DNA of 26,335 nt from an uncultured archaeon (GCA_964407715.1 CAYOWP010000013.1:1-26335), one strand, 5' to 3'. Positions 3 through 26,263 are shown, counted from the first letter of the stretch. Notes: generated by a model from the sequence alone, not told the origin. Made by a program: numbers and translations.

Positions 3-1085
3 ACCAACATCACAGTGAAAGGTTCAGATACTTTAAAGAATAATGGGATTTTAGTTAATTGGGCAGATCATAGCACATTTACCAATATAATCTCAAATGA
101 TAATTATGCTGGAATGTATATTGATGCTGTTTATTATTCTACCTTTAAAAATATAACAGTGAACAATAACTATTATGGTATTTATCTTTTTGATGATTGT
201 GATTATGATACACTTACAAATATAACAGCAAAGAATAACTATTATGGAATTTATGTGCCTTATTATATGTGGGAGGTTATTATCGCAAATTCTACTATAT
301 CTAATAACACAGAATGTGGGATTTATTTATGTGACGCTTCTGATAATTATCTTTACAATAATTTTTTAAACAATATGAACAATACATATATTTGTGATCC
401 ATCTTCAAATCCAAATTACTGGAATACTTCATTGCACTCTGGCACTAATATAGTAGGAGGGTCTCTCATAGGAGGTAATTTCTATGCTACCCCTTCAGGA
501 ACGGGATACTCGCAAATATGCAATGACACTGATAATAATGGAATATGCGACCAACCATATGTAATAGCATCTGGGAACATAGATTATTATCCTCTAGCGT
601 TATCAAAGACATATCCTTTAAATCCAAAAATCTATGTGGGAGAGCAATTGGCATGGAAATATGACGGATTCTTTACTAAAAGCGCAAAGATAGATATAAC
701 TCCTTACATACTTAATTATATCAACAATAATTGTTCTGGAACATTACCATGTACAATTCCAATAACATATAAAGCAGATTCTCGTGGAGGTATTAATATT
801 GTTGGGGATATCATATATAGAGGATATGTGGTAAGGGTCGAGAACATACTCTTTGAGAATGCAGGAATAAAGAACATAACTATCTATAGCAATGATTATA
901 AGAAAGTATGCTATACAAATCTCTCAAAGATATATGTTTTACCTCCTGGAGGAATAGGCATTTTCAGGATACCTTGCGATATACTGTGCAATAACATAAA
1001 AGACATAATAGTTGAAACCACGTGTGGTGTAAAGGATAAGCTATCAAGTCATCCTATAAGAGACAAGATTTTGTGGTGTGGATAA
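3..1085 (+). CDS. NosD/CASH right-handed beta-helix cell-surface protein, 5'-truncated by the window edge
   Basis: Repeated 'NITxxNNyYGIYl' beta-helix rungs. The cap 'GTNIVGGSLIGGNFY...CNDTDNNGICDQPY...NIDYYPL' is typical of archaeal NosD-domain surface proteins. The frame is open upstream of the GTG at 15 (ACC AAC ATC ACA), so the real start lies outside the window. Confidence 0.8.
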   Translation, partial: TNITVKGSDTLKNNGILVNWADHSTFTNIISNDNYAGMYIDAVYYSTFKNITVNNNYYGIYLFDDCDYDTLTNITAKNNYYGIYVPYYMWEVIIANSTISNNTECGIYLCDASDNYLYNNFLNNMNNTYICDPSSNPNYWNTSLHSGTNIVGGSLIGGNFYATPSGTGYSQICNDTDNNGICDQPYVIASGNIDYYPLALSKTYPLNPKIYVGEQLAWKYDGFFTKSAKIDITPYILNYINNNCSGTLPCTIPITYKADSRGGINIVGDIIYRGYVVRVENILFENAGIKNITIYSNDYKKVCYTNLSKIYVLPPGGIGIFRIPCDILCNNIKDIIVETTCGVKDKLSSHPIRDKILWCG

Positions 1086-3176: not shown

Positions 3177-4034
3177 ATGTTTAGGATAAATGAGAATATC
3201 TTGAGAAGAAGCTCTTTTTTATATCCCATCGCAAACAAATTAGCAAAGTCTTTTAGACACCTCAATATCTATTTATATCAAGCCGAGGTACCTTTAAATT
3301 TGGTTGAATATATTGCATATTCTCTTTACTCCTCTTTACAGATTACTTTTTTCTTTTTTGCTTCTTTGTTGATATTATATTTCTTCACCAAAGAGATCAT
3401 ATTTTTGAAAATACTTCCCATATCCATTCTATTCTTTTTTATGTTTTTTTATACTCAACTTTATAGACCTAAAGTTTATGCATTAAGAAAGGCGAGAAAG
3501 ATAGAAGAGGAGCTTCCATATGCGCTTAGACACATGCTTATTCAAATAAGATCAGGAGTGCCACTTTATCAGACCCTCGTGTCATTAACAAGGGATTATG
3601 GAGAGTTAAGTGAAGAGTTCAAGAAAATTATTAAGAAAATCAATGCGGGATATAGCGAATCAAAAGCATTAGAAGAAAGCATATTAAGAAGTGCATCTGA
3701 TAAATATCGCAAATCTTTTTGGCAGATACTCAATGCTATAAAGACAGGGACAGATATTGAAAGACCTTTGGAAAATGTTGTAAATGAAATCATAAATGAG
3801 CAAATCATTACAATAAAGGATTATGGAAGACAACTAAATCCTCTAACACTCATATATATGATGATAGCAGTGATCATGCCATCCTTAGGAATTACTTTTT
3901 TGATGATAATCTCTTCTTTTGCAGGATTTTCTCTCAATAAAGGAATCTTTATAGGGATTATTATATTCTCAATCTTTTTCCAATGGGGTTTCCTTAATTT
4001 GATAAAAAGCAAAAGACCAACAATCAAGATATAA
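3177..4034 (+). CDS. Type II secretion system F-family (TadB/TadC-like) pilus platform protein
   Basis: 'IEEELPYALRHMLIQIRSGVPL...YGELSEEF' T2SSF signature; several TM helices; directly after the ATPase. Confidence 0.9.
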   Translation: MFRINENILRRSSFLYPIANKLAKSFRHLNIYLYQAEVPLNLVEYIAYSLYSSLQITFFFFASLLILYFFTKEIIFLKILPISILFFFMFFYTQLYRPKVYALRKARKIEEELPYALRHMLIQIRSGVPLYQTLVSLTRDYGELSEEFKKIIKKINAGYSESKALEESILRSASDKYRKSFWQILNAIKTGTDIERPLENVVNEIINEQIITIKDYGRQLNPLTLIYMMIAVIMPSLGITFLMIISSFAGFSLNKGIFIGIIIFSIFFQWGFLNLIKSKRPTIKI

Positions 4035-4045
4035 GGTGCTTTTAA

Positions 4046-5137
4046 ATGACATTTAAGTGGCTAATAAAAAGAAGGCATAGGAAAGATTTGGAGGAGATAA
4101 AAAGAAAAATAGAAAATGTGGAAAAGGAGGCAAAAAGAAACAAATTCAAAAGATATGTGGTTACGCTTTATTATTTACTTCCAAATTTTTATAAAAGAAA
4201 GATAGAGGAGGAAGCACGATATTCAAACATAGAAGATTATCCTTATTATTATTCCCAAATATCAATAATCTCTTTTTTGCTACTTTCTATATTTCCCATC
4301 TATCTATTTTTAATTAAGGTTTCTTTCATATTTCCTGTTTTGCTTTTTATTTTCATGTTAATAGCATCTTTATTAATTCCTTATTTTTCCTTGATAATGT
4401 CTGCTGAAAGTAGAAGAAAAAGGATAGAGAAATATCTTCCAGATTTCTTGATTCTTGTATCTTCAAATATGAAATCAGGTCTTACTATTGATAAAGCCAT
4501 CCTTTTTGCATCTCGGAAGGAATTTGGTGAGCTCAGTGAGATTACAAGAAAAGCAGCATATGAGATTTATAGCGGTAAAGATGTTGATGATGCACTTTTG
4601 GATATGTCATCTTATATAAAATCACAAATTTTTAATAAAACAATAAAATTGCTAATTCAGGGATTAAGAGCTGGAGGAAACATTGCAAAATTGCTTGAAG
4701 AGGCCGCAAATGATATTCGCAACACAGAGCTATTACAGAAGGAGATCAAAACTACTGTTATAACATATATCATGTTTATATTCTTTGCTGGTGTTATAGC
4801 ATCTCCTGTGCTCTTCGCAATATCTGTTTTTCTAATAAATTCTACAATGTCTATGTGGAAGATTGATGTTTCAATGGAGGAAATGCTCAAGGAATATAGT
4901 GTTATGAATATCATGACCATACACAAGCCAAAGATAAATGTTCAAATGTTTGAGATATTTTCCCTTATCTCGCTCATGATTACCACTTTTTTTGCTGGTT
5001 TATTGATTTCCATAATTCAAACAGGAGGATATAAAAATGCATTGAAATATTCTCCTATTTTCATGCTCCTAAGCATCGCAATTTATTATGGCGCATATTA
5101 TCTTTTATCTTATTTATTCGGAAACATGTTGATATAG
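4046..5137 (+). CDS. Type II secretion system F-family (TadC-like) pilus platform protein
   Basis: 'IEKYLPDFLILVSSNMKSGLTIDKA...FGELSE' and 'GGNIAKLLEEAANDIR' signatures; multi-pass membrane protein. Confidence 0.9.
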   Translation: MTFKWLIKRRHRKDLEEIKRKIENVEKEAKRNKFKRYVVTLYYLLPNFYKRKIEEEARYSNIEDYPYYYSQISIISFLLLSIFPIYLFLIKVSFIFPVLLFIFMLIASLLIPYFSLIMSAESRRKRIEKYLPDFLILVSSNMKSGLTIDKAILFASRKEFGELSEITRKAAYEIYSGKDVDDALLDMSSYIKSQIFNKTIKLLIQGLRAGGNIAKLLEEAANDIRNTELLQKEIKTTVITYIMFIFFAGVIASPVLFAISVFLINSTMSMWKIDVSMEEMLKEYSVMNIMTIHKPKINVQMFEIFSLISLMITTFFAGLLISIIQTGGYKNALKYSPIFMLLSIAIYYGAYYLLSYLFGNMLI

Positions 5138-18550: not shown

Positions 18551-19318
18551 ATGGGGTTGTTTGCAGGTAGTGAGGCAGAGAGGAAAGGCAATGCGAGAGG
18601 AGAGGTTGAGAGAGTAACAACAGGGGTTATAGGTCTTGATAGCAAAATGGAAGGAGGATTTGTAAAAGGCTCTGTTAATTTAGTAGTAGGGAAGGCAGGT
18701 ACAGGCAAAACACAATTCTGTTCTTCTTTTATATATGCAGGAGCCAAACAAGGAGAGAGAGGTTTATACATTACAACAGAGGAATCTGTAGATGGTATAA
18801 AAAATGATATAAAAGCCATGTTTGGATGGGATTTTGATGAATTGGAAAGACAAAACCTTGTAAAGTTTATCTCAATAAAACCAGTATTTCCAGAGAGAAC
18901 AACAGAAGATATTACCATGATAACCCGTAGTTATATTCTTAATGTGATAAATAAAATATCCTTTGCTGTAAAGGAATTAAATGCTCAGAGATTGGTTATA
19001 GATTCTATTTCTGTGTTGGAGATGTTTATAGATGATAAATACCTTGCAAGAGTTTCATTGATGAGCCTTACAGATAAATTGAGACAGCTTGGCGTAACAA
19101 CTGTAATGAGTGGAGAAATACCTGAGACATCTGAAGGACTGAGCGGTTCTGGGATTATAGAGTATTTGGTAGATAGTGTAATAAAATTGGATTTTGTTCC
19201 TGTTTCTGAGGAATTTAAGAGAACATTGACTATAAGGAAGATGAGAAGAACGAATCATTCCACATTAATACATCCATTTGAGATTACCAAGGAAGGAATG
19301 AGGATAATAGAGATATAA
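18551..19318 (+). CDS. KaiC-like (RecA superfamily, RAD55-type) single-domain ATPase
   Basis: 'ERVTTGVIGLD...GG', Walker A GKAGTGKT, 'YITTEES', Walker B 'RLVIDSIS', 'IRKMRRTNHS...PFEITKEG'. Confidence 0.92.
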   Translation: MGLFAGSEAERKGNARGEVERVTTGVIGLDSKMEGGFVKGSVNLVVGKAGTGKTQFCSSFIYAGAKQGERGLYITTEESVDGIKNDIKAMFGWDFDELERQNLVKFISIKPVFPERTTEDITMITRSYILNVINKISFAVKELNAQRLVIDSISVLEMFIDDKYLARVSLMSLTDKLRQLGVTTVMSGEIPETSEGLSGSGIIEYLVDSVIKLDFVPVSEEFKRTLTIRKMRRTNHSTLIHPFEITKEGMRIIEI

Positions 19319-21272: not shown

Positions 21273-21422
21273 CTATCCTCCTAATATTGATTTCACAACA
21301 TCTTTTAATAAACCTCCCATTTCATGGGTTATCTTTATTAGAGCAATTAAAACTATGGATAAAATCAATAAATATCCAATCAACTTTATAAGAGTCATGG
21401 CTTTTCCTTTAAGTTTTATCAT
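21273..21422 (-). CDS. Small pilin-like protein with class III-like signal (49 aa; start moved to ATG 21422)
   Basis: MIKLKGKA|MTLIKLIGYLLILSIVLIALIKI...; GGTGA SD just upstream. Confidence 0.6.
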   Translation of the reverse strand: MIKLKGKAMTLIKLIGYLLILSIVLIALIKITHEMGGLLKDVVKSILGG

Positions 21423-21903
21423 TTTTTTCACCTTTTTCTTCTTTTTTTGTGGCCTTTTTAATGCAATTTTCAAAGCAACTTTTATAGTTTGCATCTAATG
21501 CGCACTCTTGAGAGCATTTGATCTTGAGAGAGGGATTATCTATCTCTATCCCGGGATTTTTTGCCTTTTCTTTTGCTTTTAACACTAAAAGAATAAGCAT
21601 CATTGCAATTAACATGCATAAAAGGAGGTAGAAGATGGTTTTTAATGCAAAAAAACCTCTTTTTTTATTTTTTGCAATATAAAACACCAATAATCCAGAG
21701 AAAAATGGTAGAGCATCTTTTATCTGGTCATATACCTTTTTTTCTGTCTCTAATGCATCTTTTGATGAAGAAGTGAGAACATAATATACAGAAAATATAA
21801 GTATAAATACAGAGATTGCTGCAATGATAATCATAACCAATGTTGATAGAGATAACGAAAAGCCTTTCTTTTTCCTTTTAAAACGGTAATTTGACCTTAA
21901 CAT
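21409..21903 (-). CDS. Pilin-like protein with two tandem class III signal peptides and a Cys-rich C-terminus
   Basis: KRKKKG|FSLSLSTLVMIIIAAISVFILIF and KNKKRG|FFALKTIFYLLLCMLIAMMLILLVL; GGAGGT SD; CSQEC...CFENC. Confidence 0.7.
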   Translation of the reverse strand: MLRSNYRFKRKKKGFSLSLSTLVMIIIAAISVFILIFSVYYVLTSSSKDALETEKKVYDQIKDALPFFSGLLVFYIAKNKKRGFFALKTIFYLLLCMLIAMMLILLVLKAKEKAKNPGIEIDNPSLKIKCSQECALDANYKSCFENCIKKATKKEEKGEKNDKT

Positions 21904-23336: not shown

Positions 23337-24104
23337 TTAGAAAGGAAATCTTCTATAAAAATAAATATACAAAGGTAAAGTGAGTAAATAAATTATTATT
23401 TTATGAGATTTTCTCATTTTTTCTTTCCACTCGTCTTTTGGTTCTATTTTGTTTACTTCTTTTAATCTAATTCTGTTTCCTTCTATTTGGTGAGATTTTA
23501 CATTTAGATTTGATAAATACTTCTCTTGATATTCCTCATTAATCATGCTGCATATCTTTTTTAAATAATGTAGCGGTTCTGATACAAAGTCCTCATATCT
23601 CAGTAATATTTTATTTGGAAAATTTCTTATCCAGATTCTTATTTTTATATTGTACCATATCCAAAATATAATAAACCTAAATAACTTATTATATTTTACA
23701 TAATATCTATAAATTGAACCACAAGGATTTCTAATAAGGTGGATAATGAGCACCTTATCTCTTACCTTATATAGATGAGTTAATGGTTGCAATTCCTTTG
23801 ATGAGTCAACTATATATTGCTTCTTTGATATTTCTAAGATTTTATCATAATAATCAAAATAATATTTGATTTTACATTCGTGAAATACTTTTTTCCAAAT
23901 TTCACATTTATTCCATAATTTATTGCAAGAGCATTTGTGTGAAGAAACATCAATCTTATCTCTATTTAATCTCTTGATGAAGGTATATAATTCTCCTATA
24001 CCTATGATATTTGGATGAACTGAAAGAGCAATATCTAATATCGTGCTTCCACTATGTCCACAAGAGAGAATATAAATATATCTTATATCTCCTTTATTGA
24101 GCAT
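23337..24104 (-). CDS. Sulfotransferase family protein
   Basis: 5'-PSB-like 'SCGHSGSTIL', 'IVDSSK', 3'-PB 'IHLIRNPCGSIYR', 'LRYEDFVSEP'. Confidence 0.85.
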   Translation of the reverse strand: MLNKGDIRYIYILSCGHSGSTILDIALSVHPNIIGIGELYTFIKRLNRDKIDVSSHKCSCNKLWNKCEIWKKVFHECKIKYYFDYYDKILEISKKQYIVDSSKELQPLTHLYKVRDKVLIIHLIRNPCGSIYRYYVKYNKLFRFIIFWIWYNIKIRIWIRNFPNKILLRYEDFVSEPLHYLKKICSMINEEYQEKYLSNLNVKSHQIEGNRIRLKEVNKIEPKDEWKEKMRKSHKIIIYLLTLPLYIYFYRRFPF

Positions 24105-24122
24105 ATAATCCTCTCCTATTTA

Positions 24123-25013
24123 TTAGATTTTATCTATTATCTTTTTATATTTTTCTTCTAAGAATTTTCTTATTTCATCTGGAACAAGATCAAAATTGCC
24201 TTGTCTTACTTTTGTTGCTGATAATTCTTCCATTTCTTTACCAAGTTGTATGACCTCATATCCAACTTCCCTTCCAATATATACTTTGTTTATGTCAGGA
24301 ATCTTTATTATTTTTACTTTATTTCCCATAACTGCTTTTATCATCATTTCTCTTTCTTTTACAGTAAACGGATTTTTCTCATCCCTTTTTGTGTCTCTTA
24401 TAGCTATCAAAACTTTTTCACCTTTCTTCAGAGCATGCTCTACCAATGCCTTATGACCATTATGAAAAGGCTGCCATCTACCAATATAAAGAGAATACGT
24501 CTCTTTAAATTGATCCAAATAATCCAATATTTTGTTTACGCACTCCTCTACACTTTCTTTTTCTGTGTTCACAACAATCTCTGCATTTTTAGGCTCCTCA
24601 TAAGGATCATCAATCCCTGTAAAGTTCTTAATTTCTCCTTTTAATGCTTTTTTATACATTCCTTTTACATCCCTTTTTATACATGTATCTAAGGAACATT
24701 TTAAGTATACAAGCACAAATCTACCTCCATTACTCTCAATGATTTCCCTTATTTTCTCTCGTGTTTTTTCATATGGACTTACAAAACTTGCTATTACATC
24801 AACCCCATTTCTATTAAGTAATGATGCTATATAAGCCACTCTTTCAAGATGTTTTTCTCTATCCTCCATTGAAAACCCTAAATCTTGTGATATTATCTTC
24901 CTCATCTCATCTCCATCAAGATGCTCAGCATGTATTTTTTCTTTTAAAGCATTTGCCAATGTTGTTTTACCACTACATGGCAAACCTGTGAGCCATATGG
25001 TCGTGCCTTTCAT
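24123..25013 (-). CDS. cysC: Adenylyl-sulfate kinase fused to a C-terminal HxGH (cytidylyltransferase-like) domain; likely start ATG 25013
   Basis: 'IWLTGLPCSGKTT', 'LDGD', 'RDVKGMY...GEIKNFTGIDDPYEEP', then 'YIGRWQPFHNGH...IAIRDT...NPF...LSATKVR'. Confidence 0.92.
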   Translation of the reverse strand: MKGTTIWLTGLPCSGKTTLANALKEKIHAEHLDGDEMRKIISQDLGFSMEDREKHLERVAYIASLLNRNGVDVIASFVSPYEKTREKIREIIESNGGRFVLVYLKCSLDTCIKRDVKGMYKKALKGEIKNFTGIDDPYEEPKNAEIVVNTEKESVEECVNKILDYLDQFKETYSLYIGRWQPFHNGHKALVEHALKKGEKVLIAIRDTKRDEKNPFTVKEREMMIKAVMGNKVKIIKIPDINKVYIGREVGYEVIQLGKEMEELSATKVRQGNFDLVPDEIRKFLEEKYKKIIDKI

Positions 25014-25093
25014 ATATCCCACCTAAGTAATAGGTGATATATAAAATAAAACATGTTAAAAATTTAAAACATTAATGGTATTATATTCGCTAT

Positions 25094-26263
25094 ATGGATA
25101 AAAAGAAATTTAAAATTGCTTATGTTACTTATGCAAATATTCCCTCTAAGCATGCACATTCTATTCACATAATGGAGATGTGTTCCTCTTTGGGCAAGTA
25201 TGTTGATTTAACTTTGGTTATTCCTTTTTTTGCTTCTCATCATGTATATCCTTCAGATATCTTTGAATATTATGGTGTTAAGAAAACATTTAAAATTAAG
25301 AGGATTTATGTGTTGGATTTCCTTTTCTTTACACGATATCTACATAGATTAGCATCTCTCCTTTTCCATTTACATGATTTCCTTTTTTCATTTATTTCAT
25401 TATTTTATCTTTTGATTGTGAAAGAGAGATATAACCTCATATATACTCGCGACCCACATGTTGCATTCGTTTTTTCTTTTTTTAAGCCTGTTATCTATGA
25501 AACACATGCTTTCACAAAATCTTCTTTTTATCATATCTTAGAGAGAAATATGCTGAAGAGAATCTTATATATTGTTTACTTGACTCCTTATTTGAAGTAC
25601 CTTTACGAGATCTACTACAAATTTAATACTCCTTCATCAGTTATTCATGATGCAGTAAATTTAAAGAAGGTTTCAAATATAAAACCCAAAAAACTACCAA
25701 AAGATAAGCCAATAATTGGATATATTGGTAGTGTAGAAACCTTAGGATCAAAAAAAGGTATAGAAATAATATTAGATGCTGCTAAAGAGATTAAAGAGGC
25801 TATATTCTATATCATAGGCTTTAAAACAGATGATGAATATAAGAGATATAAGGCATTAGTGGAGCAAAGAAATTTAAAGAATGTGATTCTTCTAAAAAGA
25901 CTTCCACATAAAGAGGCAATATCTTATCTAAAATCATTTGATATTGCCTTACTCCCTTTACCTCGAACAACATTCAATGCATATTTTACTTCACCTATGA
26001 AGCTCTTTGAATATATGGCTGCAAAAAAGTGCATAATTGCAAGTGACCTGCCCTCTATAAGAGCAATTATTTCAGATAATGAATGTCTTTTCTTTAAACC
26101 AGGAGACTCAAAGGATTTAGCAAATAAGATAAGATATGCTTTGAAGCATAAAAAAGAGTGCAATAAAAAAGCCCAGAATGCATATAAAAAAGTTATGAAA
26201 AACTATACATGGGATAACAGAGCGAGAAAGGTGTTAGAATTTTTAAAATTTTGGGCTAATTAA
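25094..26263 (+). CDS. GT4-family (GT-B) glycosyltransferase
   Basis: 'IGYIGS...KKGIE', 'FDIALLP...TSPMKLFEYMAAKKCIIASDLPSI', 'YTWDNRA'. Confidence 0.92.
   Translation: MDKKKFKIAYVTYANIPSKHAHSIHIMEMCSSLGKYVDLTLVIPFFASHHVYPSDIFEYYGVKKTFKIKRIYVLDFLFFTRYLHRLASLLFHLHDFLFSFISLFYLLIVKERYNLIYTRDPHVAFVFSFFKPVIYETHAFTKSSFYHILERNMLKRILYIVYLTPYLKYLYEIYYKFNTPSSVIHDAVNLKKVSNIKPKKLPKDKPIIGYIGSVETLGSKKGIEIILDAAKEIKEAIFYIIGFKTDDEYKRYKALVEQRNLKNVILLKRLPHKEAISYLKSFDIALLPLPRTTFNAYFTSPMKLFEYMAAKKCIIASDLPSIRAIISDNECLFFKPGDSKDLANKIRYALKHKKECNKKAQNAYKKVMKNYTWDNRARKVLEFLKFWAN

Follow-up and report, generated by a model that had tools for sequence, protein, structure and literature searches.

The mature pilins of bacterial Flp/Tad systems are about 50 amino acids long and comprise little beyond one helix, and their processing motif is G|XXXXEY. 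The small archaeal pilins known so far carry a single N-terminal signal. In the literature searched, prepilin peptidases are not known to do more than trim a short leader from the N-terminus. Small archaeal type IV pilins that EppA or PibD processes have a short K/R leader, which is cut off after G, ahead of a hydrophobic helix; they are very small once mature and are assembled by an ATPase with split TadC-like platform genes (PMC10117864, PMC4858521). The Epd pilins of Methanococcus, of the DUF361 class, are of this kind. PibD is reported to accept leaders down to 3 residues (PMC10117864). Under the models of a further study, few type IV filament systems are found in DPANN archaea (PMC13705601).

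Here we describe a gene from an uncultured archaeon that resembles these small pilins in its parts and differs from them in its plan. It lies on a contig of 26,335 nucleotides (GCA_964407715.1 CAYOWP010000013.1:1-26335), the whole of which we call the window. The short K/R leader with G ahead of a helix recurs in it, as do, on the same contig, an ATPase gene and split TadC-like platform genes. Unlike Epd-type pilins, the encoded protein matches no pilin model and has, beyond two membrane segments, another complete signal. If a class III-type signal is defined as a short basic leader ending in G/A directly ahead of a run of at least about 20 hydrophobic residues, such a signal occurs twice within the 164 amino acids (Table 1). 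The Flp motif G|XXXXEY is absent from both modules: at +5, module 1 has L and module 2 has K, and there is no E-Y at +5/+6 after G14 or G83. The earlier note on this DNA had recognized two class III-type signals in one ORF, and all the parts that it listed were found in the sequence; its 13-residue middle hydrophobic stretch corresponds to residues 65-77, LPFFSGLLVFYIA. We consider it very probable that this is a real, selected gene of a DPANN archaeon that encodes two tandem pilin-precursor modules (a "double prepilin"). On sequence grounds, a short hydrophobic segment starting at an invariant Pro links the two modules.

Table 1. Features of the double-prepilin gene and of other genes in the window
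Feature	Residues or length	Position	Strand	Remarks
Double-prepilin gene	164 aa	21409..21903	-	ATG start, single ORF
Leader 1	1-14	21862..21903	-	7 K/R, no D/E; KRKKKG (KKKG), then F15; class III-type site
Hydrophobic helix 1 (by hydropathy)	15-43 (end approximate)	21775..21861	-	29 residues, starts FSLS; AF2 helix 19-44 at low confidence
Polar loop	44-64	21712..21774	-	predicted extracellular; 4 K/R and 5 D/E
Hydrophobic return segment (by hydropathy)	65-77 (13 aa)	21673..21711	-	LPFFSGLLVFYIA; Pro66 invariant
Inner leader	78-83	21655..21672	-	KNKKRG, ahead of F84; second class III-type site
Hydrophobic helix 3 (by hydropathy)	84-108 (end approximate)	21580..21654	-	25 residues, starts FFAL
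Cys head		21460..21519	-	C130-x3-C134-x8-C143-x3-C147; two predicted helices
Upstream pilin-like gene	56 aa	21878..22048	-	KKIKG, then EMSINTL...; overlaps start of 164-aa gene by 26 bases
Downstream single-helix gene	49 aa	21273..21422	-	MIKLKGKA, then MTLIKLIGYLL...; overlaps end of 164-aa gene by 14 bases
Flp-like gene	58 aa	22192..22368	+	divergent; KRC, then ASAIEGMGMYL...; dN/dS 0.01 (G003 vs G004)
Type IV filament ATPase, FlaI/TadA-like	524 aa	1593..3167	+	PF00437 5.1e-34; NCBIfam FlaI 3.9e-85, below equivalog cut-off
Two TadC/FlaJ-type platform genes		3177..4034, 4046..5137	+	PF00482 6.3e-16, 2.3e-18
NosD/beta-helix protein		15..1085	+	ahead of ATPase; runs off window start
Minimal nucleotidyltransferase	100 aa	5162..5464	-	MNT-type, PF01909
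KaiC/ArlH-like ATPase		18551..19318	+	single-domain
Winged-helix membrane protein	301 aa	19321..20226	-	C-terminal domain DUF7343/MarR-like
Patatin-like phospholipase	307 aa	22378..23301	+	directly adjoins Flp-like gene
Sulfation and glycosylation genes		23337..25022	-	set continues on the plus strand
Sulfation and glycosylation genes		25094..26263	+	set continues on the minus strand

The genome comprises 898,521 bases in 16 contigs, is 92% complete and has a GC content of about 31%; the window is its contig C13. It carries the archaeal markers Cbf5 with a DKCLD domain, S8e and eIF-2 beta, and the host is a DPANN (Nanobdellati) archaeon. Near-identical DNA is present in runs labelled hydrothermal vent metagenome (in run X2, 0.74 of the sampled words), and a small share of it in one run labelled sediment.

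Homopolymers sit exactly at the junction between the two modules: a T7 run on the plus strand at 21660-21666 (A7 in the coding sense), an adjoining A7 run at 21649-21655 and a T6 run at 21668-21673. Such a position is what one would see had two neighboring genes been merged by a homopolymer miscount in assembly or sequencing. The earlier note had offered an indel of this kind, or an internal start with slippage, as an alternative and had proposed verifying the homopolymer in reads. We compared assembled contigs instead of raw reads, from two other metagenome runs (X2 and X4) that are filed as separate samples and studies. The X2 contig (record 3) spans 21283-21803 with 3 substitutions and the X4 contig (record 7) spans 21651-21801 with no substitutions, and both cross the A7, T7 and T6 runs without an indel. 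A contig of run X1, the possible source sample, contributed no more than a dissimilar piece of 35 bases. Both other reading frames contain stops at the junction. Homologues, to which the earlier note had also pointed as a check, keep the fusion as a single ORF in all 7 cases found, with different junction sequences, and no split form was present among the 5 candidates scored in a search for shorter relatives. An artefact of merging is, on these results, extremely improbable.

A related idea is that the second module is also made separately, as an ordinary prepilin with a leader of 11-12 residues. The TTG at 21690-21688 (L72), which had been described as out of frame, and the GTG at 21687-21685 (V73) are in fact both in frame, 10-11 codons before G83, and could serve as such a start. 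However, the equivalent region of G001, G003 and G004 contains no in-frame ATG, GTG or TTG (3/3 homologues with DNA compared), and a clear ribosome-binding sequence was not seen. Separate production of the second module is highly unlikely, and internal initiation as a conserved mechanism was rejected, the in-frame start codon being confined to the window among the DNA compared. Between G003 and G004, the double gene as a whole has a dN/dS of 0.106; taken singly, the first module has 0.09 and the second 0.11.

Together, 1.84 billion representative proteins and the searched genomes yielded a small family of 8 sequences, and its alignment has 8 rows (the window protein and 7 homologues). P0002 (175 amino acids) shares 63% identity with the window protein across 97% of the query. 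A search of 41 related genomes gave full-length matches without stops in G001 (36% identical) and in G003 and G004 (26%), and P0005, P0006 and P0007 were added by a profile search of the 1.84 billion representatives; P0006 comes from a contig of 586 bases and P0007 from one of 901. Scans of metagenome and genome contigs for further loci with their neighborhood yielded the G001 contig alone, and nothing for P0005. This profile search returned only 8 matches at E up to 1e-3, of which 6 belong to the family, the window's own protein included. The proteins P0008 (899 amino acids) and P0009 (1503 amino acids), which are long and repetitive and matched at E 1e-4 to 5e-4 over many stretches, were left out. 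In a profile search of 42 genomes of the order, the full-length form was confined to family f1 (G000, the host genome, with G001, G003 and G004) and was not found in G002 (85% complete).

All 8 members share I34, P66 and the four Cys. In the polar loop, 15 of the 21 residues are identical between the window protein and P0002, and the return segment measures 11-16 residues in every member except P0007, where it has about 36. The N-terminal K-G is kept in 7/8; the remaining member, P0006, lacks a leader, although a miscalled start is possible on so short a contig. G003 and G004 have the leader MKG, which suits the tolerance of PibD for 3-residue leaders indicated in the section of the report cited above (PMC10117864). 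The inner site [KR][GA] is likewise present in 7/8 members. The exception is G001, which belongs to the same genus and has the noncanonical inner sequence FKSSLG despite a canonical N-terminal KVKG.

The search of 42 genomes also gave partial matches in 22 genomes of other families, with E values of 1e-4 to 4e-7. At the loci inspected (13 genes at 8 loci, picked from profile matches and hence not an unbiased sample), these were free-standing genes of 84-117 amino acids, often in tandem arrays, and 13/13 had an N-terminal [KR][GA] class III signal followed by one helix, about 22 polar residues and a CX3C-led Cys-rich head. Free-standing genes of the sister families, such as those at L026 (1492..1791), L030 (five in tandem), L034 and L038, thus resemble the fused modules in their basic [KR][GA] leader, their stretches of about 22 hydrophobic and about 22 polar residues and their Cys-rich head. 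They differ from the fusion in that each is a single module with 6-9 Cys and has neither a return segment nor a second leader; their function is uncharacterized. The L030 locus (G013:C12, 1501..3016 [+]) holds five tandem paralogues of 85-110 amino acids, all Cys-rich and with class III signals. At L038 and in its relatives, a 48-amino-acid pilin-like gene is paired with an 88-amino-acid Cys-rich gene, which is the gene order of the window in unfused form.

By profile comparison, both modules are homologous to these free-standing Cys-rich pilin-like genes and to each other. In hhalign, the second (C-) module matched the 13 free-standing genes at 96.7% probability (E 3.8e-10, 58 columns), in an alignment that starts at the basic motif and lays the inner RKRKKG on the N-terminal signal (RK[GA]/KKG), helix on helix and CX3C on CX3C. 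The first (N-) module matched the free-standing genes at E 9.3e-9, and the two modules matched each other at E 8.4e-7. The families of the downstream gene and the Flp-like gene, single helices of like composition, gave probabilities of 0.3-7% against the modules and the upstream gene, and these low scores let them serve as negative controls; the Flp-like family reached 47% against the free-standing genes. When alignment columns were shuffled within blocks so that the hydrophobic/polar pattern was preserved, 0/60 shuffles came up to the observed score in all 5 pairs compared (in one of them, 58.1 versus 22.9 ± 2.9 for the shuffled columns). In P0006, the inner site and the residues after it stand in the same register as in one free-standing gene. 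The reading of the inner KRG as a signal motif, made in the earlier note, thus agrees with its alignment onto the N-terminal cleavage motif of free-standing genes. Together, profile homology and shuffles show the ORF to be a tandem fusion of two prepilin-type modules, in which the inner motif is a signal that has been kept and not a basic loop arisen by chance. No other fused form of the free-standing Cys family was found among 7997 candidates (longer proteins), a result that carries little weight.

Motif counting says less. In a crude set of 3621 ORFs of 40 amino acids or more, many of them spurious, 34 had an N-terminal [KR][GA] followed by a hydrophobic stretch (about 30 of which look genuine, by a crude count, in this 0.9-Mb genome) and 19 had an internal one. 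Both sites occur together in this ORF alone, against about 0.18 expected under independence. By itself the pair of motifs is only weakly beyond chance, and the stronger support comes from homology, not from counting.

It could be asked whether the protein has anything to do with pili, being instead a small polytopic membrane protein whose motifs are cytoplasmic basic loops and whose neighbors are unrelated membrane peptides. No pilin or class III model matched the 164-amino-acid protein (Pfam at E up to 0.01, NCBIfam at E up to 1), only sub-threshold matches to unrelated families being returned, and none matched the three small neighboring genes at E up to 10. The crude scan found an internal [KR][GA]-plus-helix site in 18 other ORFs of the genome, and the pilus ATPase and platform genes stand 16 kb away. 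Against this, the matches of both modules to genes that have textbook class III signals at the N-terminus and heads rich in Cys score far higher than shuffles, the N-terminal K-G with its helix persists in all but one of the family members, and pilin-like genes accompany the gene in a conserved cluster. We therefore regard the absence of any pilus role as unlikely.

Within this cluster, the upstream gene matches the C-module at E 1e-7 and the free-standing Cys pilin-like genes at E 1.4e-6 (hhalign), scores that place it in the same superfamily as the modules. The downstream gene showed no significant similarity to the other compared families in hhalign; its dN/dS is 0.047 (G003 versus G004). 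A longer reading of the latter from an ATG at 21494 (21273..21494 [-]) would add 24 very basic residues and enlarge the overlap to 86 bases; homologues favor the start at 21422. The order of small, double and small gene is conserved in G001, G003 and G004. The divergent gene, whose G/C-then-AIE-type start is reminiscent of Flp, holds the same place in G003 and G004, and none was seen beside the G001 copy. All four cluster genes are under purifying selection, with dN/dS of 0.01-0.20 in the single pair compared (G003 versus G004).

The ATPase and platform module is on the same contig as the pilin-like cluster. Elsewhere in the genome there are two more strong T2SSE matches (E of about 1e-35) and some weaker ones. 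A single candidate for the prepilin peptidase, a GxGD aspartyl protease, was found in the genome: a PibD/FlaK-like protein of 301 amino acids (G000:C1). PF01478 aligned to it over positions 1-103 of 104 with 20.8-23.6 bits, under the cut-off of 26.5, and FlaK_Arch matched at E 1.4e-8, again under the curated cut-off; inspection of the sequence by eye showed an Asp in YCDLK and a GEGD motif.

Several further genes in the window and elsewhere were noted in passing. A NosD/beta-helix protein precedes the filament ATPase, and a minimal nucleotidyltransferase, possibly half of a toxin-antitoxin-like pair, follows the platform genes. Nearer the pilin-like cluster, a KaiC/ArlH-like ATPase is convergent with a gene whose end is 2 bases from its own and whose product combines an outer domain with a single membrane helix and a winged-helix domain; the two may be a membrane-bound regulator pair. 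On the other side of the cluster are a patatin-like phospholipase and a set composed of an APS kinase-cytidylyltransferase-like fusion (299 amino acids), a sulfotransferase (255 amino acids) and a group-1 glycosyltransferase, which could make sulfated surface glycans. In a crude ORF scan of the genome, contigs C2, C3 and C14 were found to hold three copies of a 110-amino-acid class III-signal gene with the leader MRTKTKKA; the first 43 residues are identical in two copies and differ at one position in the third. Contig C6 encodes giant proteins of 929 and 908 amino acids that share the pilin-like N-terminus MKRRG, then TVSFSIGSL.... The 110-amino-acid copies and the giant proteins look like recent duplications of surface genes.

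How the chain lies in the membrane was judged from hydropathy and charge counts. The inner loop contains only K/R and no D/E in 8/8 members, and the N-terminal leader is likewise K/R only across the family, except for a single D/E in the P0007 leader; loop, linker and head have mixed charge. This pattern fits an in-out-in-out course in which the return segment crosses the membrane, an arrangement that we infer from the charges and from the homology of the head to heads that are necessarily outside the cell in the free-standing genes. The earlier note had suggested that the middle stretch could return the chain to the cytoplasm; the charge pattern agrees with that suggestion, whereas the shortness and marginal hydrophobicity of the segment speak less clearly for it and leave the topology a matter of inference.

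The full-length AF2 model was poor (pLDDT 60.2), with the helices broken at 79-82. For the C-module, AF2 with 17 aligned sequences gave pLDDT 74.5, with a predicted helix at 82-115 (pLDDT of about 93 over the core) and a head of two helices, 124-134 and 140-157, each with one CX3C (pLDDT of about 84). Foldseek found 0 matches to the C-module model in the PDB. With VIA-align, all matches were long helices that tied at Z 5.0 or less, and none stands out; the archaeal pilus subunit 8fk7_A (Z 4.8) is among them, within the tied background. The best ESM Atlas scores were 0.80, to DPANN clusters, and are a lead only. The Cys head has the C-x3-C ... C-x3-C sequence pattern of the small Tims, on two predicted helices that may be antiparallel, and Tim8-Tim13 (3cjh_A) aligned with it over 44 residues at Z 4.8 and rmsd 2.6, tied with dozens of unrelated helices. 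In small Tims the spacer between the CX3C motifs is 11-16 residues, whereas in the Cys head it is 8, and no homology is claimed.

From these elements we postulate the following course of processing. The precursor would insert with its N-terminus inside, helix 1 leading out, the return segment in and helix 3 out again, so that both leaders would face the cytoplasm and the loop and Cys head would lie outside. The one PibD/FlaK-like candidate peptidase of the genome probably removes leader 1. More tentatively, the same enzyme may also cut after G83, which would free an 81-amino-acid Cys4 mini-pilin for the Tad/Epd-like ATPase and platform of the same contig. Two cuts would leave a 69-amino-acid membrane hairpin of helix 1, loop and return segment, so the first product would be such a hairpin and not an extractable subunit. 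The chain as a whole, inner cut included, can be put forward as a possibility of about the same tentative standing: a polyprotein whose three-span precursor would yield an exported Cys4 mini-pilin and a retained hairpin, 1:1.

Nearly as likely is that the inner site stays uncut, which would make the product a three-span membrane protein with a tethered second pilin-like module. Its role would be, for example, that of a base or anchor subunit, or of an assembly or priming factor for the adjoining small pilins. To our knowledge, no tethered pilin of this kind has been described. The choice between this plausible reading and the inner cut turns on the same few features. Cleavage is favored by the inner motif, canonical in all members except G001 and in the register of the free-standing genes, and by the orientation of the helix, which the inferred topology makes right. 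A single candidate enzyme apparently serves some 30 varied KG/KA/RG sites (34 crude matches), and an exposed, rightly oriented inner site would then probably be cut too. Yet only 5-6 residues separate the return segment from helix 3, a very short turn that may block access, and the inner motif of G001 is degenerate. A basic stretch followed by a small residue ahead of a helix would also be expected from the positive-inside rule and a tight turn. Conserved gene fusions mostly act as fusions. The two modules are equally constrained, as are the loop and the return segment with Pro66, which suits a single folded membrane unit, and the overlap of the gene with both small neighbors suggests a fixed complex. 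Finally, the candidate peptidase scores under both curated cut-offs, and the inner cut would be without precedent: the literature searched described no protein with two class III signals, no polyprotein made of pilins, and no prepilin peptidase that cuts internally or behind a leader with membrane segments.

With its second signal placed beyond two membrane segments, this conserved natural substrate would allow a test both of internal action by prepilin peptidases and of the limit on leader length. Should the inner cut be real, it would be the first internal substrate site for these enzymes, and the mini-pilin would be the first pilin from a polytopic precursor. Should the site stay uncut, the protein would present a membrane-tethered pilin module, a part undescribed for type IV filaments. 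DPANN archaea rely on contact with other cells, yet their surface machinery is poorly understood, and the finding adds to it in either case. With a family of 8 sequences, the double prepilin is a lineage-specific curiosity and not a general principle.

Among characterized systems, the mitochondrial Arg5,6 precursor offers a parallel to the proposed processing. There, as reported, one chain gives two products when MPP, the same peptidase that trims the N-terminus, cuts at an inner copy of the signal (PMC8734313). The two cases differ in protease class, compartment and type of substrate, and the comparison is an analogy only. Judged by its sequence, the double prepilin is new in architecture, and its modules are of the known class III pilin-like type.
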